A DNA stretch of 64,000 nt from an uncultured Phycisphaerales bacterium (GTDB lineage Bacteria; Planctomycetota; Phycisphaerae; Tepidisphaerales; Tepidisphaeraceae). Each line of letters starts with the position of its first letter. The stretch's first letter is position 1. Below, piece by piece: positions 26,367-62,076 of this stretch. Where the stretch lies: assembly GCA_963844715.1 (NCBI GenBank), contig CAWJPJ010000006.1:1184001-1248000 (forward strand), in the 5' to 3' direction. The notes below the pieces were generated by a model. That model worked only from the letters and a program-made list of their open reading frames with translations. It was not told the DNA's origin and searched no databases. A program made the position numbers and the translations under genes.

Positions 26367-27153
26367 TCACCCCAGCAAATCCCCCATCGAATACCTCCCC
26401 GCCTTCTGCTTCACCAGCCATTTCGCGGCCCTCAGCGCCCCCAGCGCAAAGGTATCCCGCGTGGTCGCCACGTGCCCGATCTCCACTCTTTCCCCCAGGG
26501 CCGCGAAGTAAACCGTGTGTCTCCCCACTTCATCCCCCAGCCGCAGGGAGTGCATTCCGATCTGCCCGCGCTGGCGAGTCTCTTCCGCTCCATGCCTGCC
26601 ATACACCAGGGCCTTGCGCGATTTTCCGGTTGCCTTCAAAATCGCATCAGCGATCGCCGCCGCCGTCCCGCTCGGCGCATCTTTCTTGAATCGGTGGTGC
26701 CCCTCGACGATTTCCACGTCGTAATCGTCCCCCAATCGTTCCGCCACTTCCGCCGCGACTTTCAGCAGTACATTCACCCCCAGGCTCGTATTCGGCGCCT
26801 GCAAAACCGGAATTTTCGCCGACGCCACATCGATCGCCGCATGATCCTTCTCCTTCAATCCCGTCGTCCCGATGACCATGGGAATTCCCCGATCCCGGCA
26901 AGTCTTCAGCCAATGCCGGGTCGACGCCGGGAGTCGAAAAATCGATCAGCACATCCGGCCGCGGCCGCAAATCAAACGTGATCGGCAGCCCTATATTTCC
27001 AATCCCCGCCATCTCCCCCGCATCATGCGAAAGATGCGGCGTCTCCGGCTTATCGATCGCCGCCACCAACTTGAAATCCGCATCCGCCTTGGCCAGCGCA
27101 ATCAATCTCATCCCCATGCGCCCGCACGCCCCGGTGATCGCCAGTTTGATCAT
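26367..27153 (-). CDS. dapB: 4-hydroxy-tetrahydrodipicolinate reductase (frameshift near 26925)
   Basis: GACGRMG, IDFS, VIGTTG, EGHHRFKKDAPSGTA. Confidence 0.95.
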
Positions 27154-28592
27154 TTCAGCACCCCGCGGTTTTTCAATTTCGAAGGATCTTCTCCCATCGC
27201 CCGCAAAATCGCGCCCAGATCATCCTCCACCGGCACCGGCCGATTCGACAACTTCCCCGTCGGCTCCGACCGCGGCGCCAAATCCTGCACCGCCTTCATG
27301 TCCACACCCGTGTGATATTTCACCGTCACGTTGGGATCTTTCAGTTCATGCCCAGTGAGTATGCACACCGCCGTCTCATCCGCGCAAATCGTCTGGTTGT
27401 CCAGAAGCTGATGCAATCCCGCCACGCTCGCCGCGCTCGCCGGTTCGCAGCCGAATCCCCACCGCGCCACCATCGCCCGATGCTCCAGAATAATCTCATC
27501 GCTCACTTCCGCCGTCACCCCGTTCATCACCTCCAGCGCCCGCAGCGCCTTGGGCAAATTCACAGGCCGGCTGATCTCAATCGCGCTGGCAACCGTATGC
27601 GCATGATAATTCGCCTCATCCATCGCGGCATAAAGTTTTTGCACCGCCGTCGCGTCGTACTTCCCCCCATTCCACCTCACGCCGCGCCGGCCATATAACT
27701 CATGCAGCGTATTCGCCCCCGTCGCATTGATGATCGCCAATCGCGGAATCTTCTTGATCAGCCCAAGCTGCTTCAATTCCGCGAACGCCTTCCCAAACGC
27801 CGAGCAATTCCCCAAATTCCCACCCGGCACGATGATCCAATCCGGGCTCTGCCAATCCAAAGCCTCGAGCACCCGCAGCATGATGCTCTTCTGCCCCTCG
27901 AGCCGGAACGGATTCACGCTGTTCATCAGATAGATTCCCAGTTCCGGAATATCCATCGCGATCTGCCGAATCCGCCGCAGGCAATCGTCAAAATCCCCGT
28001 GGATTTGCAGCGTCATGGCCCCGTAATCCAAAGCCTGGCTCAGTTTCCCCAGCGCGATCTTCCCTGTCCCGATGAAAACGATCCCCTGCATTTGCGCCAG
28101 ACTCGCGAACATCGCCAATGACGCGCTGGTATTCCCCGTCGAAGCGCACGCCACTTTCCGCGCCCCCACCATCTTCGCGTGCGTGAACGCGGCAGTCATC
28201 CCGTTGTCTTTAAAACTTCCGCTGGGATTCAAACCTTCGTATTGCAGAAGGAGTTTCCCCTCTTTCATCCCCAGATGTTTCCCGAGCAAATCCGCCTGCT
28301 GGAGACACGTCCGACCCTCCCCGATCGTCACGATCTGATCTTCTTCCCGATAAAACGGCAGCAGCTCGCGGAACCGCCAAACCCCCGAAAAATCCAGCCT
28401 TCCCTCGACCCCGCTCCCCTTGGTGCTCCACCGATGCTCGAAAAACGACAGCCCCTTGATCTTCGGCAGCTTCTCCCAGTCATACTGCACATCCAGCAAG
28501 CTCCCACATTGCGGGCATGCAACCAGAACCTGCCCGACGTCAAACGTCGCCGCGCAAGCAGAATTGATGCACTGCTGAAATGCCGCACTCAT
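27150..28592 (-). CDS. thrC: Threonine synthase
   Basis: NPSGSFKDNG, CASTGNTSAS, PGGNLGN, EPASAA. Confidence 0.95.
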   Translation of the reverse strand: MSAAFQQCINSACAATFDVGQVLVACPQCGSLLDVQYDWEKLPKIKGLSFFEHRWSTKGSGVEGRLDFSGVWRFRELLPFYREEDQIVTIGEGRTCLQQADLLGKHLGMKEGKLLLQYEGLNPSGSFKDNGMTAAFTHAKMVGARKVACASTGNTSASLAMFASLAQMQGIVFIGTGKIALGKLSQALDYGAMTLQIHGDFDDCLRRIRQIAMDIPELGIYLMNSVNPFRLEGQKSIMLRVLEALDWQSPDWIIVPGGNLGNCSAFGKAFAELKQLGLIKKIPRLAIINATGANTLHELYGRRGVRWNGGKYDATAVQKLYAAMDEANYHAHTVASAIEISRPVNLPKALRALEVMNGVTAEVSDEIILEHRAMVARWGFGCEPASAASVAGLHQLLDNQTICADETAVCILTGHELKDPNVTVKYHTGVDMKAVQDLAPRSEPTGKLSNRPVPVEDDLGAILRAMGEDPSKLKNRGVLK

Positions 28593-28751
28593 GCAACAGA
28601 TTATTGCAGAAAAAGGGCCAGTTGCCAGCTAACCCCGCGCACCCCCGCGCCTCCCGCGAAGCCGGTAGTGCTTGCACTACCGGACCTTGCCTTGCGCCCG
28701 TGATTTATCCCCTAGCAACTCGCAACTTCTTCCCTACAATGCCCATCGCTT

Positions 28752-29767
28752 ATGCCCGATCCACGTCCCGCGCGTTCGCGCTCTCAGACGCCCCCCTCGG
28801 CCATGGACCAGGTCGCCCACTGTGTCGCCGCCGAGATGATGCAGGTCGAACTCCTCTTCGACGAGGAACTCGGCAGCCAACTCTCCTGCGTCAACCAGCT
28901 GGTCCGTCATGTCAGCCGCTTCCGCGGAAAAATGCTCCGCCCGCTGCTGCTTTTATTGACCGGCAAAGCCTGCGGCTCCCTCGAAGCGCGACCACGTCGT
29001 CCTCGCCACCGTCGTCGAAATGGTCCACATGGCGACTCTCGTCCACGACGATGTCCTCGACGAAGCCGAACTCCGCCGCCGCGGCGCGACGATCAATCAT
29101 CTCCGCGGAAACGAAGCCGCCGTCCTCCTCGGCGACTATCTCATCAGCCACTCTTTCCATCTCTGCTCCAGCCTCGACTCCCAATTCGCCTCCCGCATCA
29201 TCGGCAAAACCACCAACGAAGTCTGCGAAGGCGAACTCCTCCAAATTCACAACCGCAACAATCTCGATCTGGAAGAAGAAACCTACATCCAGATCGTCAC
29301 CCAAAAAACCGCCGCCCTGTGCGCCGCCTGCTGCCTCCTGGGCGCCTATTCCTCCGGCGCGGGAGAAAGCACCGTCGAATCGATGCGCCTCTACGGCCTC
29401 TCCCTGGGCACCGCCTTCCAAATCCAGGACGACATCCTCGACATCGTCGGCGACCAAACCACCGTAGGAAAAACCCTCGGCATCGACGTCCAAAAAGGCA
29501 AGCTCACGCTCCCCATGATTCATTTCATGAACACCGCTCCGCGCGAGCACCGCACGCTGTTGCGTTCCCTGCTCCTCAGTAGAGAAGCCGACAAGGTCGA
29601 GCGCATCCGCAACCTGATTCTCCCCAGCGATTCCGTCCAGTACGCCACCGCAAGAGCCCGCCGGCTAGTCGATCGCGCCGACCGCATGCCTAAAACCCCT
29701 CCCCGACTCCCGCGCCAAGGAATTCCTGGCCCAACTAGCCGAGTTCGTAATCAGCCGCCCGCTTTAG
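28752..29767 (+). CDS. Polyprenyl diphosphate synthase (frameshifts near 28990 and 29685)
   Basis: GKMLRP, LVHDDVLD, FQIQDDILD, GKTLGID..GKLTLP. Confidence 0.92.
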
Positions 29768-29879
29768 AGGTAAGCTTCGTCCTACCTTTTCCCACCCGCA
29801 TCCCCACCCGACGCGCCTCTTCCAACCATTCCACTTACTCCCCATAAAACAATTTCGCCAACGCCACAATTCCAAAATC

Positions 29880-29929
29880 AAAGGGGTCGGGAGTCGTTTA
29901 CAGAAAACGACTCCCGACCCCTTTTTTTT
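29880..29929. repeat. REP-like hairpin, probably also a terminator
   Basis: aaaggggtcgggagtcgttt-acaga-aaacgactcccgacccctttttttt. Confidence 0.8.
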
Positions 29930-29967: not shown

Positions 29968-30171
29968 TCATTCCGACGACCCGCCTGCATCCCTCCGCGA
30001 GCTCGCTTCCCTCGATTTCTGAAGCTGCAGCACCAGCCAATGCGCCTCTTCCAGCCAGGCCAGCTTCTCCGCCAGCGGGAGCTTCGCCATCCGCTCCATT
30101 TGCTGCTGCCGATGGCCCTCCCATCCGACTTCCCAGACCTCTTCCGATTCGGGTTCGTTCGATGAATTCAT
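29968..30171 (-). CDS. Small hypothetical protein
   Basis: WEGHRQQQMERMAKLPLAEKLAWLEEAH. Confidence 0.55.
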   Translation of the reverse strand: MNSSNEPESEEVWEVGWEGHRQQQMERMAKLPLAEKLAWLEEAHWLVLQLQKSREASSRRDAGGSSE

Positions 30172-30256
30172 GGTGTGCCCCCCATTATACCCCACCCCTT
30201 GCGGCCCCCCACTGGACATCCGCTACAATATATATGGACGCAAACGAGGATCCTGA

Positions 30257-31526
30257 ATGAAAAAAGTTGCCAGTTGCCAGTTGCCAGTTGCCAGTACCAG
30301 CAGTAGTAACGGCAAAAGGCAAGCCCCTGTCTTTACTGGCAACTCGCAATTAACAACTGGCAACTATTCCCGCGGCTTCACCGTCCTCGAACTCCTCGTC
30401 GTCATCGGCATCATCCTCGTCCTCCTCGGCATCCTTCTCCCCGTCATCAGCAAGGTAAAAACCGCCAGCTACTCCGCCGACACCCAGCAGGAAGTCAGCC
30501 AGCTCTCCACCGCCATCAACGAGTATTACTCCATCTTCCACGCCTATCCCGGCCCCTTCACCAACGACCAGATCGAAGCCGAAACCAGCGGAGCCACCAG
30601 CGGCATTCCCCTCGGCATCGCAAATTTTGAGATTTACACCGACGGCGCAACCAACCCCTACGGCACTCCATCCACCACCCCCTGGACCGTCACAGGCACC
30701 GAAAACCTCGTCCTCGGACTCCTCGGCGGACTTCGCATCGATACCACCGGGTCGCCGCCAACCAACAACCCCGTCTTCGCTCCCAGTGAAGTCGGTCTAG
30801 GCCCCTTGAGCCTCAACCCCGCAAATCCACGCCGCTACAGTCCCTTCATCGACACAAAAAATATACTCTGGTGCAGCCTCAGCGGACCGACCACTGCCCC
30901 GCAAGTCAGTCAATCGAATCTCATGCCCACCAACCCCTCCAACTTTCACGATCTCGCCGGCGTCTCCGCCTACGATTCCGAAATCCCGGAATTCGTCGAT
31001 CGCTTCCCCGTGCCCTTGCCCATCCTTTATCTCAGGGCCCGCACCGGCGCCAAAAGGCATCATCAGTGACGGAACAACCGTCGGCATACCCCCCATCAGC
31101 CAAACGGTTCCGCCTCTTCGCGCCTACCAATACGACATCCGTGACATTTACGCGTACGTCACCAACACCACGAGGCTAGCCACCAGCTCCGAGAATGAGG
31201 GAATCGGCCTGCCCTTGGGCCGCTACCACAATCTCGGGCAACTCGCCCTCCCGAGCACCATCACATCCTGGCCCCCGGCGAACCCCGCAAAAGCGGGGCA
31301 ATACAGCACCGATACCATTTCGAACTATGATGCCTTCGCCTACTTCGCCAACTTCTCTTCGGTCCCCCCAAGCCTTAGCCAGACCGGCGACGTTCCCGCG
31401 AACGCCTGGGCCAATTACACCGGCCAGCCCCGCTCCGTCGATCAATTCATCCTCATCACCGCCGGCCCCGACAGAATTTACGGAACCACAGACGACATAA
31501 CGAGTTTCGGCGATGTCGCCCAGTAA
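30257..31526 (+). CDS. Prepilin/pseudopilin 1, GspG-like (frameshifted near 31055-31200)
   Basis: RG|FTVLELLVVIGII N-methylation motif; the shifted frame ends FILITAGPDRIYGTTDDI. Confidence 0.85.
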
Positions 31527-31568
31527 AATCATTCCCCCCAGCCATTGGACAAAGCGAATAATCAATTG

Positions 31569-32741
31569 ATGCGAGGCACGAAGGCACATAGGCACGAAGG
31601 CACGAAGGGAAATCCTTCCGAATTCACTCCGTGCCGAAGCGCGCTCGCCCCGGCGAGGGCCTCCGTGCCTCCGTGCCTCTCTTCCCCCCCCACTGGCAAC
31701 TCTCCCCCCATTCGTCCCGCCACGGCGGATGCTGGCGCACATTCGGATTTCGGATTTGGTTCGGATTTCGGGTTTCGGGCTTCGGGTTTCCGCGCCCGCC
31801 GCGGCTTCACCGTCATCGAACTCCTCGTCGTCATGGGCATCATCATCGTCCTGGCGACCTTCCTCTTCTACGCCTATCAGAAGGTCGTCCTCGACCGAAA
31901 AATCAGCGACACCAAAACCGCCCTGCAATCCGCCAAGGCGCTCCTCGCCAACTACGAGCAAGCCACTCACTACCGCCGTCCTCCGCCAACTCTCTTCTGC
32001 TCTCTGTGGGGCAACGCCCAATGGCCCCCGATGGGCACTTCCTTCAGTTCCAGTTTTTGGACCGCGGGCATCACCAGTATCGCCAACGCCCCAGGCGCCG
32101 GCGAACCCGCCGCCACCGCAATCAACCCCGATATCTTCAACAACACAAATGCGAGCTTCTGTCCCGTTCAGCTTGCCGACACCATCTGCGCCATGTACGC
32201 CATTCAATCCATCCCCGAAAACCAGGCCATCCTGAATAGTCTGCCGACGAATCTGAAAAAGACCGTCCAGGTCACACAATCTCAAGTAACGGGAAACAAC
32301 GCGCCGGTCGAGACCGTCACCCTCATCCTGGACGGCTGGGGAAACCCGCTCCTCTTCGCCCCCGCCGACGGCTTGTACGGAGTCGAAACTTCCGCCGACT
32401 CAACAACGACCCCTCCCGCCGGCACCTACCCGCAGGGTCAGCAACTCTTCTATCGCAAGCTCGGTTCAAACGAGCCCTTCATTTACACCGCCATCCTGCC
32501 AAACGGCGCGTCGGGAGCACCGCCCTATCCTCCGCCATCCTTCGTCATGTTCGTTGGAACAACAACCTCGTTTCCGCTGACTATCACGGCTCAGGGTTGG
32601 GGCGGCCTCTGCGATCCCACCGGCCTACGCCCCTATTGGGTCTCCGGCGGCCCCGACGGCGACGTCAGCAATACCCACTATCCCCAGTTCCCAGAGTTGA
32701 CCCGTCACGACGACGACAACATTTATTCGTTTAATAATTGA
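31569..32741 (+). CDS. Prepilin/pseudopilin 2, GspG-like
   Basis: RG|FTVIELLVVMGII, LDGWGNPL, SGGPDG...DDNIYSF. Confidence 0.88.
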   Translation: MRGTKAHRHEGTKGNPSEFTPCRSALAPARASVPPCLSSPPTGNSPPIRPATADAGAHSDFGFGSDFGFRASGFRARRGFTVIELLVVMGIIIVLATFLFYAYQKVVLDRKISDTKTALQSAKALLANYEQATHYRRPPPTLFCSLWGNAQWPPMGTSFSSSFWTAGITSIANAPGAGEPAATAINPDIFNNTNASFCPVQLADTICAMYAIQSIPENQAILNSLPTNLKKTVQVTQSQVTGNNAPVETVTLILDGWGNPLLFAPADGLYGVETSADSTTTPPAGTYPQGQQLFYRKLGSNEPFIYTAILPNGASGAPPYPPPSFVMFVGTTTSFPLTITAQGWGGLCDPTGLRPYWVSGGPDGDVSNTHYPQFPELTRHDDDNIYSFNN

Positions 32742-32743
32742 GC

Positions 32744-33863
32744 ATGAAAATGCCAGTTGCCAGTTGCCAGTTGCTAGTTGCCAGTAAATACGGGAGCCGC
32801 CGTCCCCCCGTCTTCACTGGCAACTGGCAACTGGCAACTCGCAACTATTCTTCCGGCTTTACTCTGGTCGAAATGCTCACCGTCCTGGCCATCATTGTTC
32901 TCGTCCTGGCCAGCGCCGTGCCCGTCTTCAATTCCCTGACCGGCAATCACAGTCTCGCCGCCGCTCAGAACCAGATTGCCTCCTTGCTCCAGACCGCCCG
33001 GCAGGACGCCATCTATAACCGCCAGACCATGGGCATCTTCTTTTATATCGATCCCGCCACCGACGCCGTCGCCATGGCAGAAGTCCAACTCGATCAGCAG
33101 CAAGGCGGTGGAACGACCTATTCCCCCTCCGAGATTTATGTCAGTCCCACCAATACACAATCAACCGCTCCCCCGCAGGGTCAAGTCAACGCCATCGAAA
33201 TGGCCAACTATTGGGACCCCTCATTGACCGCTCCCGGCCAGGTGGGTACCGGCGAATTCGTCTACTACCGCGACGTCGTCACACTCCCCGCGAATGTAGG
33301 CATCGCCCTTTACAACAACTCGGTGCCCTATCCGGCCAACGGCGACATACACGCCCCCCATCATCGACCGCTACGTCCGCACCGGCGCGATTTTCTTCGA
33401 TTCCACGGGGGCCCTGGCCTCCATCCCCTATGCCGTCCAGCAAACGCGAATTACGCCATACGGCACCTTTCAGAACCATCTCGGAATCCGGCTCGGCCTC
33501 CGCGGCGCCGGCGATCCCAGCGGCTTAAATGCAACGGGCGATCTCGCCAGCGACATCAATGATTATGCCGTCAGCGGAACCCCCGTCTATTATTTCCCCC
33601 TCATCTCCCAGGTCGGCCTCCTCTTCTACGACCGCAGCGCCTACTTTAACCAGCGAACCACCAACCCAGCCGACGTCAACGGCCCCCGCGCCTTCACCGA
33701 TCAGGACCTTCAATACACGCTTCCTCCACTGTCCAGTCCCCCCAATAACAGTCCGCTGGCCTATTTCCAGGCCGACAAATCCGATGAAGAAATCTGGCTC
33801 GACCAAAACGGCCAGGCCGTCATGGTCAACCCCTTCAACGGCGCCCTGATCTTCGCAAAATAA
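32744..33863 (+). CDS. Prepilin 3, GspH/FimT-like (frameshift near 33355)
   Basis: SG|FTLVEMLTVLAII, AAAQNQIASLLQTARQDAI; ends VMVNPFNGALIFAK*. Confidence 0.85.
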
Positions 33864-33865
33864 CC

Positions 33866-35159
33866 ATGCCCACGCGCCATTCCATCCCGACCGCCCCCTT
33901 AACCGCCAAGACGCGAAGAGCGCGGAGCCAAAACTGGCAACTGGCAACTGGCAACTGGCAACTATTGCGCCATCGCGGCTTCAACTTCATCGAAATCCTC
34001 TTCGCCGTCATCCTCCTGGGCCTGGGCTTTATCATGATCGCCGGCGTGTTCCCCGTCGCCCTGAAACAAACCACGCAAACCGCCACCGAAACCACCGCTG
34101 CCCTCGTCGTCCGAGACGCCCTGCGCGACATCCAAAACGCCGCCGACGTCGAAGGCGCGGGCACAACTTTCGCCCAAACGCCAAACGGCTTCACCCCAAT
34201 CCCAGCGTCAACTATTGCCGCCGTCGGCGGAAATCAGTTCTATGCCTCCGATCCCCGCTACGCTTGGGTCGCCTTCTATCGAAGAATCAACGCCACCGAC
34301 CCCTACGCCCAGGTCGTCGTCATCGTGCTCCAAAACCCCAACTTCGCCGATCCCACCTACCCCCTAAACCCCCTCCACGAACCCGGCAGCATCACCCCCT
34401 ACAACATCCCCGGCACTCCAACCCCCACATTCAATCCCCTCCCGCCACCCATCCCGTCCAATTATGCTGGCGGTGGCACCGCCACAATCAGCAACACCGC
34501 GCCTCAGCAAACCGTCCCTTCCGGCTTTTACGTGAATAACTCGGGCACTCCCCCATATCAAGTCGTCGAATCTGGTAACCCGCCAGGCCTCTCTCCCATC
34601 AACGCCAATCTCTTTTTCTCCCCCAGCACTGGAAACAGCTACATCTTCCTCAACAACGACCCCAACATCCGCAACGGCGCCGACCCCGTCCCCAACGCCG
34701 TCACCGGCGCATTCGTCTTAATCGCAAACGACACCGGAAACGCCGCGCCCAGCGCAGGCTATCTCGCCAGACCCGCCAATGAAATGACCGGTCGCGTTCT
34801 CCGCCTCGGCGCCTTCATCGGCTACAGCGACGACTCGACCCTCCGCCTCCCCGGCGACCTCAATCTTTTCCCCCCGGATTTTCCCAAGCCGCCCACGCTC
34901 CACTCGCAGATTTTCGCCCTCGCGCCCGGCTGGGACCTCACCCCCGGCGGAACCGCGGGAGGCACAACCCAATACGGCATGGAAAATACCGGCGCAGGCC
35001 TCAAATTCGGCCGACACCCCCGCGCCACTCCCCGTTTACATTATGGGCGCAGCCCCAGAATGGACCGGCTCCATAACCAACACCACAGGCCTCTACACAG
35101 GCCCCAACCAGGACGTCGCCGCCGTCTCCTCCTACATCCGAATCAATACGGCAAATTAA
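33866..35159 (+). CDS. Prepilin 4, GspI/PilV-like (frameshifts near the C-terminus)
   Basis: RG|FNFIEILFAVILLGLGFIMIAGVFPVA; the shifted frame ends VSSYIRINTAN*. Confidence 0.83.
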
Positions 35160-35160
35160 A

Positions 35161-37272
35161 ATGCGAAGACGAGTTACCAGTTGCCAGTTGCCAGTTGCCA
35201 GCCAATGCGGGAACCGCTCCCCCATTCGTGATTCGGATTTCGGACTTCGTCATTCGGGTTTCCGCCCTCGCGGCGGCTTCACCCTCGTCGAACTCATGAT
35301 CTCCATCGCCATCGTCCTGGTCCTCATGGTCGGCGTGAACTACGTCTTCAAGAAAACCGCCGACGCCGTCGTCGCCGGACAAACCACCAATACCATGTCC
35401 CGCGACTCCCAGTCTGTTCAGACCGCCCTCTTCGACGATTTCTCCCACATCAACAAAAATCCCCCCTGCTTCATCATCGCCTCGCAGATGGTGGATCAAT
35501 TCCTCAACTCCGCCGACGCCGAGACCGGCAGCGATCCCACCATCGTCGTCCTCGACAACGGCAGCAGCGGCGCAACCCCCACTAAAGTCATCGCCGGCCT
35601 CTACAACTACCGCTGCCACCGCGTCGACATGCTCAAATATTTCGTCCGCGGAAACTATCAGCGCCGCTCCGCCAACGACGGCTCCTTCACCAGCCAGACC
35701 ACCTCCAACGACGCCTTCGTCACGCTCGGCCACGCCCTCCTCCCCACCAACGACTCCATGGATTTCCTCGGCCCCGTGAGCGACAACCTCAACCCCTCCC
35801 TCGCCCCCTTCGGCCAGCTCGCCTCCAACAGCACCACCTCCGGCCTCTGGACCCCCCAGGTCTTCACCACCGGCGCAGGCCCCCAGCAGCGCCTCGGCGC
35901 CTACGCCTCCGATTGGGTCCTCGCCCGCAGCGTCACCCTGCTAAAAGATGTCAACACCAATTACACTTACGTCACCAACTCCAACACCCCCAACGGCTTC
36001 ATCGAACACTTTTACCCGCGCTATCCATACCTTTCCTACACCGCCAGCAGCCCGGGCGTACCGACAACCGTCAACTTTCCTCCCACATACCAGACCACCT
36101 TCGCCTACCCCTACGCCGCAAACGGCTGCAACATGACGCCCCTCGCCTATTACACCCCCGACGACCAAAACTTCACCAACAACCAGCTCACCACCGTCTC
36201 CCATTCCTCCCGCTACGATCTCGCCTGCATTACCCCCGACCAATTCCGCCGCGCCATCGCCGATGAAATTCTCCAGTACCAGCACGCCGGCTACACCGGC
36301 CCCACCGCGTTCCCCTCCCAATTTCATCTCTGGTGGAACCCTCTCATCTACAACCTCCCGGTAACCCAGCAATACGCCGCCGTAATACCCACAACCGTCT
36401 CCCCAACCGTCACCTACTACACCGTGCCCAGCGGCCTCTCCAGTTCGACCGCCCTCTATACCTTCTCCGGCGCCAACGGCGTCACCAGCGGGACCGGCCC
36501 CAACCCCGATCTCGCCCGCGTAGCCGTCAATCCCCAAATTCAAACCCCGCTCACCAGCGCCATGGTCGCCCAGGTTGCCCCCTATCTCCTCCAGCACTGC
36601 TCTCAGTTCATCGTCGAGTACGCCGGCGACTATCTCCAGCAGGACCCCGCCTCGGGCAACCTCACCGGCATCGGACAGGACGGACAAATCGACTACTACA
36701 TCGACGGCAGCGGCAACCACCAAATCCGCTGGTACGGAATGCCCCGCAGCAACTCCGGCGCATCCACCATCTACGGCGTCCCCAATCCCAGTGACACCAA
36801 CGAGCCCTGGAGCACTTATCTCCCCAACGTCGGCACCGCCACCAGCCCAAGCATCGCCATCAATTATCGCCAGATCGCCACCAGCATAACCCAATACACC
36901 TATTACCCCGGCCTCCCCGACGTCATCCCCCTGCGCGATTATTACACCCTCTTTTATAACACCGTCAACGGAACCACCGGCAACCCGTTCATCTACTCTC
37001 CCCCCTGGGAAGTCGACGTGAATTTCGACAATTGCGCCTTCTACGCCAATGCCACCAATCCAAACCTGGGACCCCTGGCAAACACCGCCGGAAACGGCCT
37101 CGGCAACCCCTTCCAGATGAATGACTCCCTCAACCCCCAGGACAACGCCCGTTACGTCGCCGCCTGGTACAACGACATGCCCGCCATGATTCGTATTCTC
37201 ATCAAGGTGGACGACCCGAATGATAAGTTAAAGGACGGACCCTGGTACGAATATGTGTTCAAGTTGAAATGA
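35161..37272 (+). CDS. Prepilin 5, GspJ/PilW-like, 703 aa
   Basis: GG|FTLVELMISIAIVLVLM; C-terminal PAMIRILIKVDDP. Confidence 0.87.
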   Translation: MRRRVTSCQLPVASQCGNRSPIRDSDFGLRHSGFRPRGGFTLVELMISIAIVLVLMVGVNYVFKKTADAVVAGQTTNTMSRDSQSVQTALFDDFSHINKNPPCFIIASQMVDQFLNSADAETGSDPTIVVLDNGSSGATPTKVIAGLYNYRCHRVDMLKYFVRGNYQRRSANDGSFTSQTTSNDAFVTLGHALLPTNDSMDFLGPVSDNLNPSLAPFGQLASNSTTSGLWTPQVFTTGAGPQQRLGAYASDWVLARSVTLLKDVNTNYTYVTNSNTPNGFIEHFYPRYPYLSYTASSPGVPTTVNFPPTYQTTFAYPYAANGCNMTPLAYYTPDDQNFTNNQLTTVSHSSRYDLACITPDQFRRAIADEILQYQHAGYTGPTAFPSQFHLWWNPLIYNLPVTQQYAAVIPTTVSPTVTYYTVPSGLSSSTALYTFSGANGVTSGTGPNPDLARVAVNPQIQTPLTSAMVAQVAPYLLQHCSQFIVEYAGDYLQQDPASGNLTGIGQDGQIDYYIDGSGNHQIRWYGMPRSNSGASTIYGVPNPSDTNEPWSTYLPNVGTATSPSIAINYRQIATSITQYTYYPGLPDVIPLRDYYTLFYNTVNGTTGNPFIYSPPWEVDVNFDNCAFYANATNPNLGPLANTAGNGLGNPFQMNDSLNPQDNARYVAAWYNDMPAMIRILIKVDDPNDKLKDGPWYEYVFKLK

Positions 37273-37277
37273 GAAAG

Positions 37278-37515
37278 GAAAACCCGAATGACGAAGCCCG
37301 AAACCAGAATCAATGACCCAAGCCCGAATGAGTTACCCGATGCTCATCGCGGGTCTTTCTGAGGCCTCCGCCCACGGTACCCCGCGGGTGGAGAAAGGAT
37401 CCGGTCATTCGGATTTGTCGCCACGGCGACTCGCCTGCGGAGAGATTCGTCATTCTGGTTTCTGGTTTCGGATTTCCCGTTGATTCGTCATTCGGATTTC
37501 GTCATTCGGATTTTC
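37278..37515. repeat. Composite inverted-repeat element (aatgac/gtcatt, aaaccag/ctggttt) with a nested cgccacggcg
   Basis: gaaaacccgaatgacgaagcccgaaaccagaatcaatgac ... gtcattctggtttctggtttcggatt...ttcgtcattcggatttcgtcattcggattttc. Confidence 0.88.
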
Positions 37516-37533
37516 AAAGCCGGGTAAAAGAGT

Positions 37534-40500
37534 ATGAAGCTCGCTCATTTAACTTCACGCCGCTGGAAAAAAGGATCAGTCCTCCTATTGGTCATCGTCC
37601 TGCTCCTCCTCCTCTCCATCCTCGGCACCGCCTTCATCTCCACCAGCCACAATGACCGAATCAACTCCCAGCAAAATATCCTCAACGTCCAAAGCGAAGC
37701 CAACTTCGACGGCCTATCAAAAATCATCGGGGGGTTGTTTGTCGATGATCTTAACGATGCCCTGGGCAACTTCCGTGGAATGATGACTTCGTCGTTCCCG
37801 CCAGGTTATCTCGGCCAATGGAACGCCGCGCAAACATACTCCGCAGGCAATACCGTAAACGACCCGGCTAATCCCGCTAACTTCTACACCTGCATAAAAA
37901 ATACCCTCACGCCGGGAATCTTACTCACCAACACGACCTATTGGTCCGCGCCCTTTCCGTGGTCGAATCCACGCTCAACTTTCCGCGGAGTATGGTCGCC
38001 CCTCCTAACCTACGGCTATGGAGACACCGTGGCGTACGAGGGAAACCCGGCCGTCGTCGGCGGCGGAGTTATCCCGGTCTTTTATTACGCCAATAACCCA
38101 ACTACGCCGCCCGTCACCGGAACCGCCCCCCCAAACCCGGCGGCGCATGGACTTTGGCTACTCACCTTCCCTTCACCGCCATGGGACCTGCTCAACCCTG
38201 GCTTGCTGATCGAATTCCATCCGTTGCGGATCCGTCGCAGCCGCTCGAGGGCACCGCCTCAGGGGGTACCGTAAATCAGCCTTATTGGCAGAATATCTCT
38301 CACTCGGGAACAGCCGGCGCATTATCCGTCCTCGGTTTGCCGTTCGAATCGCCTGATGGCAGCGCGATGTTCGGAACCCTTCCAAGCACGGGGCTTTATC
38401 CCGGCTATGCAACTCTCGCTAACGTGACCGTCCCGACCCTGAGTGATACATCCCTCGACACATTTCCGGAAACGTCGCCATTACCCGCCCTTCCGTTGCA
38501 AGCCGCATACGACGGTATCAATACCGGCGGGCATATAGTGATAGCCGCCGACGCCGACGGCGACGGCATCGCCGATTCTCTCCTCTTCCGAATCCCTGGC
38601 GCCAATTTTGACGGCCTCACCTGGTATGCCGCCGTCCGCATCATCGACAACAACTCCGCCATCAACGTCAACACCGCCTGGACCCGCGACAACGAATACT
38701 CCTACCCCGCCGGCGGCAACGTCTCGCAGCTCACCAACTGGGGCTTCTTCCAGTCCGGCGTCGGACTTTTGGAAATGCTCAATGACGGAAATCTCGGCAT
38801 GCGCCCCGGCGGCGATCTCGCCACAGTTCCTGCTGGCTGGGGGGCGACTGCCGTGCAGATTAACCCCGCCTTCAACCAGTACCGCTTCAACGTCCCCGCC
38901 ACCGAAAATCCCCCCATGGCCGGACGTGTCTCTGGACTTTACGCTCAGTCCGGCGGCATCCCCCTGGACGAGACCTGGCAAACGACCTTCACGGCACCAC
39001 AGGACGTCACCGCCCGTGATGGAGATTTCGTTTACGTCTCGCCCGGCGACGCCTTTGAACACCAGCTCATCGACCGTCTTGATAACCCGGGCTTCAACAC
39101 CTACACCGCCGGCAACCCCGCGGTAGGAAACAACCGGTTCCAGGCCATCCCCTTCAGCGATGAGGCGGCCCTCGCCTATCATTTCGGCATCCCCAATTCC
39201 AACACCGGCCAAACCCTTCTCGAAAGCCTTCTTCCCTACTCGCTGAGCTACTACCAGAACAACCGCGTCATCACGGGCTCGGCCTCTCCATTCAGCGATT
39301 ACAATATTTCGATAGGCGGCTCAAACACGACGCTCGCGACAACCACGGATGAAAACAAAAACGTCCCCGCGACCCCGGCGAACGCCACGACGACCAACGT
39401 CCTCCCCACCGCGCCCTACGGCGCTTTTCCCGTCTCGGACGTCGGAACCTGGTGGTATCAGAACTTCGATTACAACACCCTCGCCAACTGGCAGGCCGCC
39501 GGTGGAAATCCCAGCTATATGCCCCTTCGCCCTCTGCTCGTCACCCGAAACCCCGTCTCCAACTACATCGATCCCGTCTACGACTCCGGCATCTGCGATC
39601 CCCAGCAGCCTATGGACACTCTGCCGCAGTCCTCATTTCCCGGGGAGGGCGAGCCGCTCGGGCAAGTGATGCTCCCTTACTACGGGACCGTCGCCGGCAA
39701 CCAGTACCAAGGCACCTGGTCCGCCACCCCGCCCGCCGGCGCTTACAAGTTGTACGACGTCGTCTCCTACAACGGCTACTACTTCTACTGCTTAACTCCG
39801 CCCGGAACCGGCGCTGCCGCCGGCTTCGGGCACCATGGTCAACGGCAACTTCGTCATCACCGGCTACGACGCGAACTGGGGAACCTGGGGACAATATAAA
39901 GGTCTTTGGAACACCGCTGCACTCTACCGCTTCAACGACCTCGTCACCGAGACCGACCCGGCCACGGGCGATACTTACACCTATGTCAGCGTCGACGATG
40001 CGAACCAGAACTTTAATCCCGTTACTACAGTGGCTGGCGCCCCGCTCAGCGGGTATCCCCAAAACCTGCAACACTGGCAGCTTCAGCCCATTAGCCGGCA
40101 CCCCGTCAAGACCAACATCAACACAGCCACCTTCCGTGAACTCTATCGCGCATTCTGGTCCGTCATGGCCGGAAATCCCGCCAATTCGTGTCCTTTCGCC
40201 CCAACCCCTGCCGGGCCCGCCGCCCCCAACTATCAGAACGCCAGTACCTACGATAGCCCTTACACTCTAGCCAACGCAGGTGCGTTAAATATCCCGTGGC
40301 ACATGTTCCGTTCCGTCCTGCGCGATCCAACGGCGCCCGCCGCCCCAGCAACACCGAATACTTTCATGGACCCCACCAACGTCGCAGCCCTGCGCGCGGC
40401 GTTGGCCGCAGTGAACGCCTTAGGCCTGCGCGATCAGACCCAGACGATCATCAGCCGAACCATCTGGCTCGCCGCCTATGTGAACAATGTCGCCTCCGTG

Positions 40501-42754
40501 GTTGAGGCGCGCGTCTGACAGCGCCATCCCACAGCCGATTATCAGCGAAGTCTACGCCGACAATGACATTTCCACCGGGAACCTGAAAGGTTACGTCGCC
40601 ATCGAGCTTTACAATCCCTACAACACGCCTATCACGATGAACAATTGGCAGGCGGGGATCATTAATCGCCAAAACCCCGGTGTTTATCCCGCCATGAGCT
40701 TGACGCCTGTAGCGGCCAATGCCCTCCTCTACACGGAAATGTTCCCTGAAAATACCGCACCCCTCCCCTCCGACGCGACCAATGTCGCCTCGCCAGCCTT
40801 AACGGAAAACCAAAACGCGATCGCCATTCCCGCGCATGGCTATGCTCTCCTAGAGAATTACGACGCCAGCGCTTCACATGGCGGCAACGCCGACCTCGTT
40901 TATGACGCCAAGACCCGCGCGCCAAATTGCACGATACCGACCGGAGCCCCCTGGACTGGCTCAGGAGCCACCAACAATACCGTGGACGTATACATTCCAG
41001 GATTGTCAAAGGTAATCCAGGACGTCGCGCCCGTCACCGGCGGCGAATTCGTCCTCCTTCGCCCGCGCCGTGCGGACGGGACGTACACCCAAAACATTAC
41101 GACTAATCAGACTTACGACCCATTGAATGACTACAACGAAGGAGCGCCGTCGCCCGGCACGCCCAACCTTTACGACCTGGTCCCCGTCGATTCATACGAC
41201 TTCACAGGTTTTCAAACCACAGCCATCACGCCTTATACCGCGTGGAGCTACCTCCGCGCGAAAAGCCAGAATAACGGCTTCTTTGCCTTCAATCCTGGAC
41301 CCTACGTCGGCACCAATGCCGGAATTACTTTCCCCCGCCAATACCCAGGCACCGACGCGGAACAATTCGGTGGTGCGGGCTTCCCCGCTACTCCCCAATG
41401 GCGAGCAGCGGCTCCCCCGCTGGGAGCATCCACCCCAAACTTCGGACCCATATACACGGCATCGTCTGCGGCAAGCTATTTGGACGTACCGACGGTACCA
41501 ATCCAAATCTATAACCAGGGAATGCCCGGACCAAACCCAACGGTGACCCCGGCCAATCCACCCACGGTTGCCAGCGGGACCACGACTTCCCCGCCCCAGC
41601 AGTTCCCGTTTGGCAGCTTCGCCCGCAACGGCGACATCCTCAACGTCCCTTACATCGGCGCTTATCGCCTGCGCGTCGTCATCCAGGCATCTAAGGTCAT
41701 CCCATTCACGCCAACCAACCCTGTGGCGGATTTCCTTGAACTGAATTCTCTTCCGATGGATGCGTCTCTCGCCGACGATGGAGATACGAACGATGACGGG
41801 TACGAGAACGTGGGACGCTTCGGGCCAATGGAAAGCAGCGCCAATCCCGACGCACCGTCATGGTACGACTGGACGGCCCGGCTGTTTGACTACCTGACCG
41901 TCCAGTCCAACAGCAGCAATTTGACGCCCAACTTTGATCCCGGATTCAACGATCCGGGCACCAATACGGCCGGGGGTGCACAGCCGACGTATCCGTATGC
42001 ACAGAAGTACTGGCCCGCGTCTCAGTCGGGTAATCCGACGTCATACGGATTCGCGCCGTACTCCGTAGGCCCTCCGGCATCCGGTTATGCCAACCCAACC
42101 GGGGCCACTGCTCAGCCGACCCCCGTGTTTAGCCCCGATGCCACGGCCACCAACCAAATGAGTCAGGACAACGCCGGCGTTGACGGCCTCATCAACATCA
42201 ACACCGCCAGTTGGAAAGTCCTCAGCATGTTGCCCTTCGTAACTGCCGCCGACGATGCAAACTATGCTATCGACGATGAAACGATTGCCCAGGCCATTGT
42301 CACCTATCGCAATGGCAACGGTCCCTTCACATCCATCTTTGATCTAAACAAGGTTCCCGGTTTCCAAACCGGGAACGGCAAATTCGCTCTGGGACAGGAT
42401 CCGACCCAAATGGGCATCACGGGAACCCCCGATACGGTCTTTACCGCCGCAAAGGGCGCCGGCGTCCTCACCAATGTCAATTTTGCCAATGAGTATCGCT
42501 CCGCCAACATGGTCCTAAACCGCATCAGCAACCTCATCACCACGCGCTCCGACACCTTCACCGTTTACATCGTCGTCGAAGGCTGGCAAAACGCCATCCT
42601 CCCCGGCCAAGTCGCCTACAATCCAACCACCCCGACCGGCCCGCCCCCCATCCTCAAAGTCACCAAGCGTTTTTCCTTCATCGCCGATCGAAGCCAGATC
42701 AATTCCGACCTCAACACCCGTTTCCTAAAAACCCTGGTCATTCAAAATAATTGA
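37534..42754 (+). CDS. Giant GspK/PilX-like pilus tip protein, about 1700 aa (indels near 38150, 39830, 40515)
   Basis: KKG|SVLLLVIVLLLLLSILGTAF; DADGDGIADS; IIDNNSAINVNTA; HhH-like ININTAS...GPFTSIFDL; NLITTRSDTFTVYIVV. Confidence 0.82.
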
Positions 42755-43061: not shown

Positions 43062-45389
43062 ATGAAGCGAATCGCAATCGTTGTCGATGGCATCGTTCAA
43101 GGCGTCGGCTTCCGGCCCTTTGTGTATGGGTTAGCAACGAAATACCAACTGGGCGGCTTCGTCAGAAACAACGCCGGCAGCGTTGAGATCGAAGCCGAGG
43201 GGACGCCCGCCGATCTCGACCAGTTTATGCGGGCGATCACCGCCAGTCCCCCGCCGCTGGCGAGCATCCAGAACATTTCCTCCCGCTCGCAACCGCCCCG
43301 CGGCCAAACCCAGTTCCAGATCGTACCAAGCCAAAGAAACGATTCGCCCAACCGCGAGATTTTCATTTCCCCCGACGTCGCGACCTGCGACGAATGCCTG
43401 CTCGATCTGTTCGATCCGCGAAACCGCCGGCATCTTTATCCATTCGTCAACTGCACCAATTGCGGCCCGCGACTCACGATCGTCCAAGGCGCTCCCTATG
43501 ACAGAAACCGCACGACGATGGCGTCCTTTGAGATGTGCCCCGATTGCCGCCGCGAATATGAAAATCCGTCCGACCGCCGATTTCACGCCCAGCCCACGTG
43601 TTGCCCCGTCTGCGGGCCGCGCCTGGAGATTTTGGATGCAGCCGGGAAGAGAATTGCGACGGCCGATCCGATCCGCGATCTCTCCGACGCCTTGAAAAAC
43701 GGAAGAATCGCCGCGATCAAAGGCCTCGGCGGTTATCACCTCGCCTGCGATGCGCGAAATGAAGAGACGGTTGCCGAACTTCGCCGCCGCAAGCATCGCG
43801 AGGAAAAACCCCTGGCGATCATGGTCCGCGACATCGCCACGGCACGGCTGTTGTGCGAAGTAAATCAAGCCGAAGAAAAGCTCCTGAATTCCTGGCGGCG
43901 TCCAATCGTTTTATTGCGAAAAAAGACCGAAATTTCAGCCCAAATCGCCGCCTCCGTCGCGCCGAATAATCCCTGGCTTGGCGTGATGCTTCCATACACG
44001 CCCGTGCATCATCTCCTGCTCAAGGCTATGGATGGAATCCCCCTTGTGATGACGAGCGGGAATAGTTCGGACGAGCCGATTGCGTTCATCGATGACGATG
44101 CGGTCGCGCGCCTGGGAACGATTGCGGACGTGTTCTTAACTCACAATCGCCCGATTCACGTCCGCTGTGACGATTCGGTGACACGGATTGTCGAGGGGCG
44201 TGAGCTTCCGATTCGCCGTTCCCGCGGCTACGCCCCCCAGCCGATTCATTTGCCCACAAAATGCCCGGTCCCAACTCTCGCCACGGGCAGCCAGCTCAAA
44301 GCGACATTTGCCCTCGCGAATGCGGATCACGCCTTCATCAGTCATCACCTGGGCGATTTGGATCATCTCGAAGCGGCCCGGGCGTTTGAGCGGGACGTCG
44401 CCCTATATGAGGACCTGTTCGAGATTCGGCCGCGATTAATCGCCCACGATATGCATCCGGATTACGTTTCAACGCATTACGCGGCCCGGCGCGCAAAGCA
44501 GGAGGGGCTGGAACTCCTGGCGATACAGCATCATCACGCGCACATGGCCAGTTGCATGGCGGAAAATGGATTGGATGAAAGAGTCATTGGCGTCTCGTTC
44601 GACGGCACCGGCTTCGGAACCGACGAAACCGTTTGGGGCGGCGAATTCCTGCTGGGCGATTATCACGGATTCGAAAGAGCCGCCCATTTGCGCTGCGTCG
44701 GAATGCCCGGAGGCGAAAAGGCCATCCACGAGCCCTGGCGAATGGCGGTTTCCCATCTGACGGACGCCGGGTGTGACGATTCCTCCATCGCGGCGCGGGT
44801 TGGAGGGATTTCGATCAAAGCCGTTCGGCGAATGATATCGCGGCAATTCAACACGCCGCAGACAAGCAGCGCGGGGCGATTATTTGACGCGGTTGCCTCC
44901 CTGGCGGGAATTAGAGACCGAGTCAGCTATGAGGGGCAGGCCGCCATCGAGATGGAACATTTGGCGACGGGGCTCGAAGTGAATGGAAGTTATCCGTTCG
45001 AAATCTCCGGCGACGGTCCCTGGGTGGTGGATACCCGCCCCCTGATTGGCGCGGTTCTTGCTGATGTGAACAAAGGAACGAAATCCGGCGTTATGGCGCG
45101 GCGGTTTCATTCGACCGTGGCGGTCATGATCGCGTCCGCGTGCCGGAAGATTGCCAAATCGAGCGGCGTCACGACCGTCGTGCTTAGCGGCGGAGTGTTT
45201 CTGAACGCGTTGCTCACCGGAGAATGCGCAGCGCGGCTGGAATCGGAAGGATTCCAGGTGTTCCGCCACAAGCTCGTCCCGCCAAACGACGGCGGATTGA
45301 GCCTCGGGCAATTGGCGATCGCCGCGGCGTTGGGGAAGGCCTCTCACGGCCAGGAGTCGATATGTGCCTCGCTATCCCGGGCAAAGTAA
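43062..45389 (+). CDS. hypF: Carbamoyltransferase HypF
   Basis: GIVQGVGFRPFVY, Zn fingers NCTNCGPR and RRFHAQPTCCPVCGP, QHHHAH, PPNDGGLSLGQ. Confidence 0.98.
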   Translation: MKRIAIVVDGIVQGVGFRPFVYGLATKYQLGGFVRNNAGSVEIEAEGTPADLDQFMRAITASPPPLASIQNISSRSQPPRGQTQFQIVPSQRNDSPNREIFISPDVATCDECLLDLFDPRNRRHLYPFVNCTNCGPRLTIVQGAPYDRNRTTMASFEMCPDCRREYENPSDRRFHAQPTCCPVCGPRLEILDAAGKRIATADPIRDLSDALKNGRIAAIKGLGGYHLACDARNEETVAELRRRKHREEKPLAIMVRDIATARLLCEVNQAEEKLLNSWRRPIVLLRKKTEISAQIAASVAPNNPWLGVMLPYTPVHHLLLKAMDGIPLVMTSGNSSDEPIAFIDDDAVARLGTIADVFLTHNRPIHVRCDDSVTRIVEGRELPIRRSRGYAPQPIHLPTKCPVPTLATGSQLKATFALANADHAFISHHLGDLDHLEAARAFERDVALYEDLFEIRPRLIAHDMHPDYVSTHYAARRAKQEGLELLAIQHHHAHMASCMAENGLDERVIGVSFDGTGFGTDETVWGGEFLLGDYHGFERAAHLRCVGMPGGEKAIHEPWRMAVSHLTDAGCDDSSIAARVGGISIKAVRRMISRQFNTPQTSSAGRLFDAVASLAGIRDRVSYEGQAAIEMEHLATGLEVNGSYPFEISGDGPWVVDTRPLIGAVLADVNKGTKSGVMARRFHSTVAVMIASACRKIAKSSGVTTVVLSGGVFLNALLTGECAARLESEGFQVFRHKLVPPNDGGLSLGQLAIAAALGKASHGQESICASLSRAK

Positions 45390-45620
45390 TTCAAACCTAC
45401 GCGGAACACGACGTCCTGATGGGCAAAGTTGACTTCAGCGGCGTCACCAAGCGCGTCTGCCTCGCCCACGTGCCGACCGCCAAGGTTGGAGACTACGTGC
45501 TCGTGCACGTCGGTTTTGCGACTCCAGGCGATCGACGAAGACGAAGCGCACAAGGTCTTTGAGTTTCTGGAAAAGATGAACCAGCTTGACGAAATCAACG
45601 AGCCGCAACCCACCCCATGA
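45362..45620 (+). CDS. hypC: Hydrogenase chaperone HypC (frameshift near 45520)
   Basis: [19 protein letters not shown]. Confidence 0.95.
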
Positions 45621-46762
45621 AATATCTCGACGAATATCGCGACGCGACAGCGGCCTCGAAGCTGGCCGACGCGATCGCGCACACTGTGACCCGCCCATGG
45701 ACGATCATGGAAGTCTGCGGCGGGCAGACCCATACGATCGTGAAATACGGCATCGACGAAATCCTGCCCCAGGAAATCGAGCTGGTTCATGGCCCCGGCT
45801 GCCCGGTTTGCGTCACCAGCCTGGAGATGATCGATCGAGCCCACGCAATCGCCGCCCGACCGGAGGTAACCTTCTGTTCCTTTGGCGACATGCTCCGCGT
45901 CCCGGGAAGTCGCGGGGATCTCCTCTCGCTCAAATCGCAGGGCGCCGATGTGCGCACGGTCTATTCCCCCCTGGATGCCGTGAATCTCGCGGCGGCGAAT
46001 CCAAATCGCAAGGTGGTCTTTTTCGCCATCGGTTTTGAGACGACGGCCCCGCCGAATGCCATGGCGGTTTGGATGGCGCACCAAAGGAAGTTGATGAATT
46101 TCAGCGTCCTGGTGTCGCACGTAACGGTGCCGCAGTCGATGACTTCGATTTTACAGGCGGAAGGAAACCGGGTCCGCGGTTTTCTGGGACCCGGGCATGT
46201 CTGCACCGTGATGGGATACGAGGAATACGAACCGATCGCCAGGCATTATCGAGTGCCGATCGTCATCACCGGATTCGAGCCGGTGGACATGCTGGAGGGC
46301 GTGCTGATGACGGTCAGGCAGTTGGAAAGCGGCCGGGCCGAGGTGGAGAACCAGTATAGCCGAGCGGTCTTGCGCGAGGGGAATGTGCATTCCCGGAAGC
46401 TGATCGACGAGGTCTTCGAGATTTGCGATCGCAAATGGCGCGGCGTGGGTCTGATCCCGAAAAGCGGCTACAAGCTCCGCCACGAATATCGCGACCACGA
46501 CGCCGAGCGGATTTTCGAAGTCGAGAACATCTCGACCGAGGAGTCGTCCATTTGCATCAGCGGGCAGGTCTTGCGGGGCTTGAAGAAACCGCACCAGTGC
46601 CCGGCCTTTGGGAAGACGTGCACTCCGCAAACCCCGCTGGGGGCCACAATGGTTTCGGCCGAAGGCGCATGCGCCGCTTACTACCACTACGGCCGGCATC
46701 TCGATGCAAATCGCAATCGATCCACAATCTCACTGCCGGTCACGGCGGGAGCGCACGCATGA
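45617..46762 (+). CDS. hypD: Hydrogenase maturation protein HypD
   Basis: [39 protein letters not shown]. Confidence 0.98.
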
Positions 46763-47391
46763 CCGCCGCATCCGCGACCATCCCGACCCCGACTTTCACA
46801 CTGGACGAATTGCAGGCCAAAGTCATGCCCAGGCCCGCGAAGCGATCCAGACGAAAGAAACATTCTTTTCAGAAAACGCGGGTCAGATCGCGCGATGCTG
46901 CGCAAGTTTGGCCCACGCGTTTGACGAAGGCGCGCGGCTCTTTGTTTTCGGCAACGGCGGAAGCTGCTGCGATGCGGCTCCACATGGCCGTCGAGTGCAT
47001 GCACCCGATCATTCAAAAACGCCCGCCCCTCCCCGCGATTGCGCTCACGACCGATGTGGCGACGCTCACAGCCATCGGCAACGACCTCGATTTTTCAATG
47101 GCCTACGCCGCGCAGCTCCACGTCCTGGCCAGACCCGGCGACATCGCCATGGGTTTCTCCACCAGCGGGAAATCATCCAACGTGAACCGGGCCCTCCAGG
47201 CCGCGAGACAATTGAAAATGTTCACAGTCGGATTCGCCGGACGCGATGGCGGGAAAATGCCCGAGTTTTGCGATTTTTGCTTCGTGGTGCGGAGTTTCAG
47301 CATTCCCCGGATTCAAGAAACCCAGGAGACCCTGCTGCACATTGTCTGGGATTTGATTCACGTCATTCGCGGCGAGGAGGATGTCCTATGA
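46759..47391 (+). CDS. SIS-domain GmhA-like protein (two indels)
   Basis: [31 protein letters not shown] spread over two frames. Confidence 0.85.
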
Positions 47392-48464: not shown

Positions 48465-48466
48465 TC

Positions 48467-49282: not shown

Positions 49283-49297
49283 GAAAGGATCGCCATC

Positions 49298-50371: not shown

Positions 50372-50388
50372 CTTGAAAGGAATATGTC

Positions 50389-52187: not shown

Positions 52188-52200
52188 ACAAGGAGCGAAG

Positions 52201-52761: not shown

Positions 52762-52768
52762 GGCGCGT

Positions 52769-55422: not shown

Positions 55423-55438
55423 TTGGAGGTCCTTTATC

Positions 55439-55674: not shown

Positions 55675-55679
55675 ATCGG

Positions 55680-56839: not shown

Positions 56840-56842
56840 ATC

Positions 56843-60940: not shown

Positions 60941-60955
60941 CATGAAAGTTACGCC

Positions 60956-62070: not shown

Positions 62071-62076
62071 TCATCT

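Follow-up and report, generated by a model that had tools for sequence, protein, structure and literature searches.

Five consecutive prepilin genes in a 64-kb stretch of DNA from an uncultured Phycisphaerales bacterium (hereafter the window) encode leader peptides that contain small repeat elements read in frame. Each element consists of a short spacer with an arm on either side; the two arms point inward and are made of 7-8 bp units in tandem. The leaders are probably tolerated landing sites of these dispersed palindromic elements. A sequence-only reading of the same DNA had offered, as one of two options, that mobile repeats of one family can land safely in the leaders, and this option is now well supported by a genome-wide family, its enrichment in leaders, units that are specific to each genome and recurrence across phyla. 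Coordinates are positions in the window unless a contig is named, and G000 denotes the source genome assembly (4.55 Mb; 85% complete).

The five prepilin genes head a minor-pilin-like operon whose last gene is large and HHH_3-bearing (Table 1), and both the genes and their repeat arms were found at the places given by the sequence-only reading. On inspection of the sequence, all five carry the prepilin motif, with a leader ending in Gly or Ala and a hydrophobic stretch with Glu5. Four of the five score above the PF07963 cut-off, and gene 4 (GFNFIE, cut after the first G) is recognised by the motif alone. A prepilin peptidase gene is present in G000 (PF01478 at C6:1166415, E 2e-20). The operon bears only a resemblance to the Verru_Chthon cassette, since its scores lie below the cut-offs of that system (36 vs 70 bits for TIGR02596, 19 vs 256 bits for TIGR02599). 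Gene 6 is putatively PilX/GspK-like, judging from its position and its missing Glu5.

Single extra bases interrupt genes 1, 3 and 4 at 31050, 33345 and 34997. The comparison of the assembly with short-read contigs was limited to window positions 30000-37700, and within it all three bases are absent from the contigs, that at 31050 from contigs of three runs. Another, independent assembly encodes gene 3 intact, as a protein of 370 amino acids (aa; P0002) with a leader identical to that of gene 3 in the window. Whether the frameshifts are genuine OFF states was considered, but they were judged to be errors of the assembly. The splitting of gene 6 into several open reading frames (ORFs) probably reflects further assembly indels.

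Table 1. Features of the prepilin operon and its surroundings (positions in the window).
Feature	Position	Strand	Description
REP-like hairpin upstream of operon	29875..29929	.	type flanking the Y1/RAYT-type transposase gene C6:877904
Prepilin gene 1	30257..31526	+	GspG-like N-terminus; window ORF ends at 31069, caused by one extra base at 31050
Leader 1	30257..30376	+	40 aa; (AGTTGCC)x4 arm 30265-30295, spacer, inverted GGCAACT-type arm 30334-30368; full hairpin
Prepilin gene 2	31569..32741	+	
Leader 2	31569..31805	+	79 aa; composite
Prepilin gene 3	32744..33863	+	GspH/FimT-like; window ORF cut short by extra base at 33345
Leader 3	32744/32750-32857	+	38 or 36 aa; arms 32755-32794 and 32807-32846; full hairpin
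Prepilin gene 4	33866..35159	+	PilV-like, below cut-off; extra base at 34997
Leader 4	33866..33979	+	38 aa; AACCGCCAAGACGC arm about 33901-33927; lone (GGCAACT)x4 arm 33933-33963; no hairpin
Prepilin gene 5	35161..37272	+	703 aa; PilW/GspJ-like position
Leader 5	35161..35277	+	39 aa; AGTTGCC arm 35172-35201, unrelated TTCGGAT/CGTCATT arm 35229-35261; no hairpin
Full element, gene 5/gene 6 interval	37278..37515	.	untranslated: stops in all three frames before ATG 37534
Gene 6, large, putatively PilX/GspK-like	37534..42754	+	short leader; C-terminal HHH_3 motif; split into several ORFs

Counted from the first ATG to the G of the cleavage site, the leaders measure 36-79 aa, in keeping with the in-frame leaders of about 35-80 aa that had been described. 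Stop codons occur in none of the five coding frames and in seven of the ten other frames. Not every arm is made of heptamers: some arms of genes 2 and 4 are 8-mers or longer units. In the composite leader 2, 8-mer AGGCACGA arms and an inverted GTGCCTCC arm occupy about 31574-31681, followed by one GGCAACT unit, CCGCCACGGCGG and then a TTCGGAT/TTCGGGT arm (31741-31790). The description of the repeats as palindromic was borne out by folding for genes 1 and 3 and the first half of gene 2 (z of -6.5, -9.0 and -3.0), but not for the second half of gene 2 or for genes 4 and 5, whose arms are lone or mismatched (z of +1.1, -0.4 and +0.15). Likewise, hairpins had been placed on the translation start, where they were proposed to tune subunit stoichiometry; stems are found in only three of the five leaders, and those of genes 1 and 3 start about 8-11 nucleotides (nt) past the first AUG without covering it.

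Long leaders of this kind would be an annotation artefact if the repeats were intergenic and the real starts lay downstream or were non-canonical. Untranslated elements do exist, both at one cross-phylum locus (L065) and ahead of gene 6 in the window, and one gene of a genome with a related operon (G018) has a second ATG 10 codons before the motif besides the upstream ATG. Against this, no ATG lies between the repeat and the cleavage site in any of the five genes, and stop depletion is restricted to the coding frame. The ATGs abut the preceding stop: the first ATG follows the stop of the previous gene by 2, 2 and 1 nt for genes 3, 4 and 5, and by 42 nt for gene 2. Internal TTG and GTG codons are confined to the repeats, except in gene 4, at five codons ahead of the cut. 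In a wider set of leaders, the ATG falls at -4 to +16 nt from the stop of an upstream long ORF in 40 of 52. True starts downstream of the repeats, which the sequence-only reading had named as evidence that would overturn it, are thus not what the codons indicate, and we regard an artefact of this type as very unlikely. Based on the arrangement of codons, we infer that the leaders of all five genes are translated and cleaved.

The leader repeats belong to a genome-wide family. Tandem loci in G000 number 164 at period 7 and 52 at period 8, against 1-6 at lags 4, 5, 10, 11 and 13, and 240 elements were found, compared with four in the reversed genome as a control. Only 12 of the 240 lie deep within confident coding sequences, and the distance from element to stop codon is within -15 to +20 nt for 112 of the 201 measured. 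Arm pairs face inward far more often than outward (67 vs 8), 59 of the inward pairs having a spacer below 150 nt. At prepilin genes the family is over-represented, as the sequence-only reading had proposed to check: seven of 30 prepilins (29 PF07963 matches and gene 4) carry an element in the leader, compared with 66 of 2015 same-strand junctions (p 6e-5).

The pattern reaches beyond prepilins to Sec and lipoprotein signal regions, which the sequence-only reading had missed. An element faces the 5' end of 113 genes, and 12 of these have their ATG exclusively upstream of or inside it. An N-terminal hydrophobic signal is present in 10 of these 12 translated-element genes and in 25 of the 101 others (p 1.2e-4); one of the two exceptions is, by eye, a lipoprotein-like substrate-binding protein. 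Judged by eye, the automatic classes understate the bias towards export signals, and three prepilins were classed as ambiguous because a Met follows within the mature helix. Cytoplasmic genes have a restart ATG shortly past the element, both in G000 and among 18 elements fetched from G018. In a second cluster (L133), a composite element makes up the leader, about 100 aa long, of a PilX/GspK-like gene.

This composite element, about 350 nt long with heptamer arms around nested G/C-rich hairpins, occurs in at least three copies (L120, L121 and L133:2642-3421), and at L120 (G000 C7:1051333-1051717) it stands in frame ahead of a signal-peptide-like stretch. Long leaders can also have other origins, as the prepilin at C7:910389 has a 62-aa leader that matches nothing in the element library.

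Comparison with orthologous operons, another check that had been suggested, revealed leaders that differ between species, even inside the genus, and units that are genome-specific. Gene 5 was matched in 30 of 41 genomes searched. A period-7/8 repeat lies at most 260 nt upstream of 19 of 95 prepilins, in eight of 20 fetched loci; these positives retain L026 (poly-C) and L030, both probably not elements, and the counts take in five negative rows from G004, an unpublished genome on which none of the conclusions depends. Stops occur in frame in 0/19 and off frame in 11/38, and inverted repeats in 13 of 98 leaders against one of 98 mature-region controls. Repeats are found at 5/5 prepilins of the operon in G000, 4/5 in G002, 6/7 in G018 and 3/5 in G019. 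The orthologous leaders of G001, G002, G019 and G018 have other units or none: at gene 2, G001 carries an AGTTGCC element, G002 only half of such an element, G000 the composite and G019 nothing, and gene 3 of G001 has an 8-mer element. Two unit patterns match G018 137 and 0 times and G000 0 and 66 times. Where one gene carries different units in different genomes, the insertions were probably separate events, though the kin are not independent. Outside the operon, five of the 11 G018 prepilins fetched carry the unit, apparently as one paralogous group, and none did among the G002 and G019 loci searched.

Other palindrome or repeat types also occur in the leaders of these relatives. REP-like inverted repeats were scored at L028 (G021) and L029 (G015), and non-heptamer types were seen by eye at L038 (G008) and L024 (G020). 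At L021:5625-5699 (G019), the repeat unit itself supplies the start codon of gene 3, and in-frame stops from earlier units lie just upstream.

Repeat-filled leaders are recurrent yet uncommon across phyla. A frame-blind search of 185,579 species genomes for one unit class beside the prepilin motif, run without a matched control, gave 62 matches at 59 loci, with titles from at least five phyla (Patescibacteria, Nitrospirota, Verrucomicrobiota, Planctomycetota, Desulfobacterota and others). These leaders have a median length of 17 aa, and in 61 of the 62 the frame stays open across the repeat and no ATG follows the repeat, the start being ATG in 52 cases and GTG or TTG in nine; one, L119, may be an allele that lacks a single unit. 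Stops were found in frame in 11/62 and off frame in 76/124. In a phylum sample, a degenerate pattern gave 18 matches in 11 of 401 genomes, 16 of them tandem and all 18 open, and as a control this pattern, moved to the mature region, matched in four of 401; one genome (G401) has five matches in a single cluster within 6 kb. The cross-phylum set and the relatives may overlap, and their counts were not added together. A metagenome scan for the GGCAACT unit beside a prepilin motif found none, so either precisely this unit has a narrow distribution or the search pattern was too strict. Protein searches with leaders alone were uninformative: one gave three candidates and two matches, both to the gene that supplied the query, and another gave six matches, five of them unrelated repeat proteins.

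Arms of the same kind bracket four-helix-bundle (PF05635) and GxxExxY genes, a link absent from the sequence-only reading. Of the five arm pairs 300-600 nt apart in G000, three enclose four-helix-bundle genes, the sole genes found at this spacing, and two are composite or further repeats. The four-helix-bundle ORF of the cassettes matches TIGR02436. In 10 cross-phylum genomes, inverted flanks surround 27 of 42 four-helix-bundle genes and none of 74 controls, and heptamers stand on both sides of 21/42 and 1/74, the 42 scored genes excluding five at contig edges. In G000, G002, G018 and G019, leader units are identical to arms that flank one of the genome's own four-helix-bundle genes, and two cassettes (L122 and L123) sit between protein genes, not in 23S rRNA. 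By eye, the four GxxExxY genes of G000 (C8:285363, C5:125272, C4:188058 and C6:1180713) have repeated or inverted flanks of their own with units of about 9 bp, and the AACCGCCAAGACGC arm of leader 4 is the type that flanks the gene at C4:188058. The five PF01797 (Y1) genes of G000 have flanks that differ from leader-type arms. The hairpin upstream of the operon and the Y1/RAYT-type gene at C6:877904 form a third repeat-plus-partner-gene system.

The short elements resemble emptied versions of the four-helix-bundle and GxxExxY cassettes, much as REPINs relate to RAYT. Tentatively, and as a doubtful extension, we propose that four-helix-bundle (PF05635/bS23, Avd-like) and GxxExxY genes are helpers of undescribed, widespread small mobile palindromes that lack a known transposase. 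Each helper would own a 7-9 bp arm unit and seed hundreds of empty copies, and these would exploit discarded host parts (RNase III-cut rRNA helices, cleaved prepilin leaders and signal n-regions), supplying the whole pilin leader in Patescibacteria and Nitrospirota. If true, a large family whose function is unknown would gain a role, and the surplus of heptamer repeats long noted in bacteria would gain an origin. PF05635 proteins presumably resemble Avd, a protein of diversity-generating retroelements. Among PDB entries, the cassette protein matched 2rld only and no Avd entry, and retro-mobility of the elements was set aside as unsupported on this ground and on the reverse transcriptase result given below.

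How the elements came to lie in leaders may be pictured as follows. An element inserting just after a stop codon in a tightly coupled operon would fall at the start of the next gene, and would survive only with the frame kept, no stop introduced and in a part that the protein can spare. Such parts would be the cytoplasmic prepilin leader, which prepilin peptidase cuts off, and the n-regions of Sec and lipoprotein signals; the accessible text of PMC10191384 describes the prepilin leader as cytoplasmic, cleaved and variable in length. Neither 7 nor 8 shares a factor with 3, so that a unit free of stops is read in all frames as one and the same peptide cycle without stops, and therefore only the total length has to fit. 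A lengthened leader could then accept further nested insertions, as may have happened in genes 2, 4 and 5, and in some lineages the repeat is now nearly the entire leader. Selection would hold the frame open rather than the sequence, so that orthologous leaders turn over between species. Mobility of the elements is itself presumed from sequence.

Several observations weigh against the view that the leaders are simply tolerated landing sites. Prepilins outside the window operon carry an element in only two of 25 cases, which is not significant (p 0.20), and the window operon holds six elements in 7.5 kb, a density never reached in 200 random placements (maximum 5). The element at 37278..37515 belongs to the same system and lies inside the operon, yet is untranslated. 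One relative (G021) has 59 GCAACT-family matches, yet none of its seven leaders has a period-7/8 repeat. The leader's own unit stands beside a four-helix-bundle gene in only one of the 10 cross-phylum genomes, and no reverse transcriptase (PF00078) was matched in G000, which is 85% complete. Start sites were assigned by sequence logic, with a crude, home-made gene caller and an assembly that contains indel errors. The filling of the operon could reflect local spread, nesting in long leaders or selection for damped expression of minor pilins.

The last of these would be co-option: neutral insertions kept in minor-pilin operons because hairpins immediately downstream of the start codon, or their cleavage by RNase III, reduce translation or determine mRNA stability and so keep minor subunits at low copy. 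The density of the operon beyond random placement would fit, as would the strong stems in genes 1 and 3 and the recurrence of operon-wide filling in separate lineages with different units (G000, G002, G018, G019 and G401). A GspG-like prepilin at C7:384914 retains an 11-aa leader and its cluster neighbours carry elements, and in the available text of PMC4990558 the stem of a related four-helix-bundle cassette in Coxiella is cut by RNase III. Folding, however, is missing from genes 4 and 5 and half of gene 2, the gene that bears the hairpin varies among species of one genus, and 12 of the 20 related loci have no period-7/8 repeat near any prepilin, so that the operon works without repeats. The sole other six-element cluster in G000 surrounds a four-helix-bundle gene, which indicates that local spread alone can build clusters. 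Overall, we regard co-option as unlikely.

Phase variation, in which slippage by one 7-bp unit would switch single pilins on and off, is the weakest of the functional readings and is poorly supported. Its attractions are that the units are not multiples of three and lie within the coding sequence of surface proteins, that L119, alone among the 62 cross-phylum leaders, can be taken for a shortened allele, and that strains of Coxiella differ in unit number upstream of the S23p gene (PMC4990558, in its accessible part). Perfect runs in G000, however, reach at most four units. Known phase switches rely on longer pure tracts. Nearly all leaders are open (61/62 in the frame-blind search and 18/18 in the phylum sample), and the P0002 leader is identical to that of gene 3 in the window. 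Contigs from four runs of one study list no change of unit number in a leader, in a check that drops rare variants and in which the listed pieces leave the leaders partly unspanned; two contigs span leader 5 and show no difference there. We therefore consider phase variation very unlikely.

If the leaders are tolerated landing sites, cleaved leaders would be neutral ground inside genes that small repeats have colonised repeatedly. Such colonisation would explain why many predicted pilins have strange, repetitive N-termini, and annotators may take such starts as probably real. Tying dispersed heptamer palindromes to two protein families of unknown function makes their mobility testable, and the leaders, from 11 to more than 100 aa, offer a natural series for gauging the tolerance of prepilin peptidase.

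Elsewhere in the window, positions 43062-57388 hold what we take to be a gene cluster for a NiFe hydrogenase and its Hyp maturation proteins, together with a formate/nitrite-transporter-like gene and a tandem pair of YceI-like genes. At 59798-63376, presumably NurA-like and HerA-like genes come after an ORF whose type is unknown, and the group is possibly a defence locus. Other genes are split into overlapping ORFs at 26367-27153 and 28580-29847, probably by single-base errors of long-read assembly.

A full-text search, in which few subscription papers were covered, found no account of repeat elements in prepilin leaders, nor, in main texts as opposed to supplements, of dispersed repeats that derive from four-helix-bundle or GxxExxY cassettes. 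The individual pieces do have precedents in the accessible parts of the papers cited below: Coxiella heptamers with S23p, inverted heptamer pairs in Xanthomonas, in-frame fusions of MITEs (miniature inverted-repeat transposable elements), and REPINs. As in the REPIN-RAYT system (PMC3116915 and PMC3337134, available sections), inverted short repeats surround a spacer in hundreds of mostly extragenic copies, the sequence is lineage-specific and the same repeats flank one small partner gene. Unlike that system, the arms here are tandem 7-8 bp units, the partners are four-helix-bundle or GxxExxY genes instead of a tyrosine transposase, and the elements are read in frame within export signals; an inverted pair and many extragenic copies were found, but a cognate flanked Y1 gene was not.

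The 23S rRNA intervening sequence of Coxiella and Leptospira, as far as the accessible text of PMC4990558 describes it, likewise holds a four-helix-bundle gene (S23p) within terminal inverted repeats with variable numbers of tandem heptamers, and is an insert that the host tolerates and that is later cut away. A four-helix-bundle ORF in heptameric inverted repeats is what the cassettes contain and the leaders do not. Here, in contrast, each genome has several cassettes with different units, between protein genes and with many empty derivatives, and the tolerated site is a cleaved peptide, where there it is an rRNA helix. The heptamers of Xanthomonas and Nostoc also form dispersed runs, often convergent inverted pairs, near stops and rarely in coding regions (PMC4692102, main text). 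In that paper, which is dedicated to dispersed heptamer palindromes, the authors judged phase variation unlikely and left the origin open; its accessible passages report no link to mobile elements, its main text contains neither 'four helix' nor 'in frame', and its supplementary gene tables may bear on the link to cassettes.

Small palindromes fused in frame, sometimes as part of a signal peptide, are described for Rickettsia RPE, ERIC and YPAL in the available portion of PMC2229807. Those are longer and extend mature proteins or create new ones, whereas here the insert stays within a part that is discarded, and it is met again in several phyla in a single class of proteins. Finally, long-leader type 4 prepilins share with the present genes a class III signal and a leader that varies in length and has Gly or Ala as its last residue; the accessible text of PMC10191384 gives no origin for such leaders, whereas in the operon described here the extra length is repeat-element DNA.

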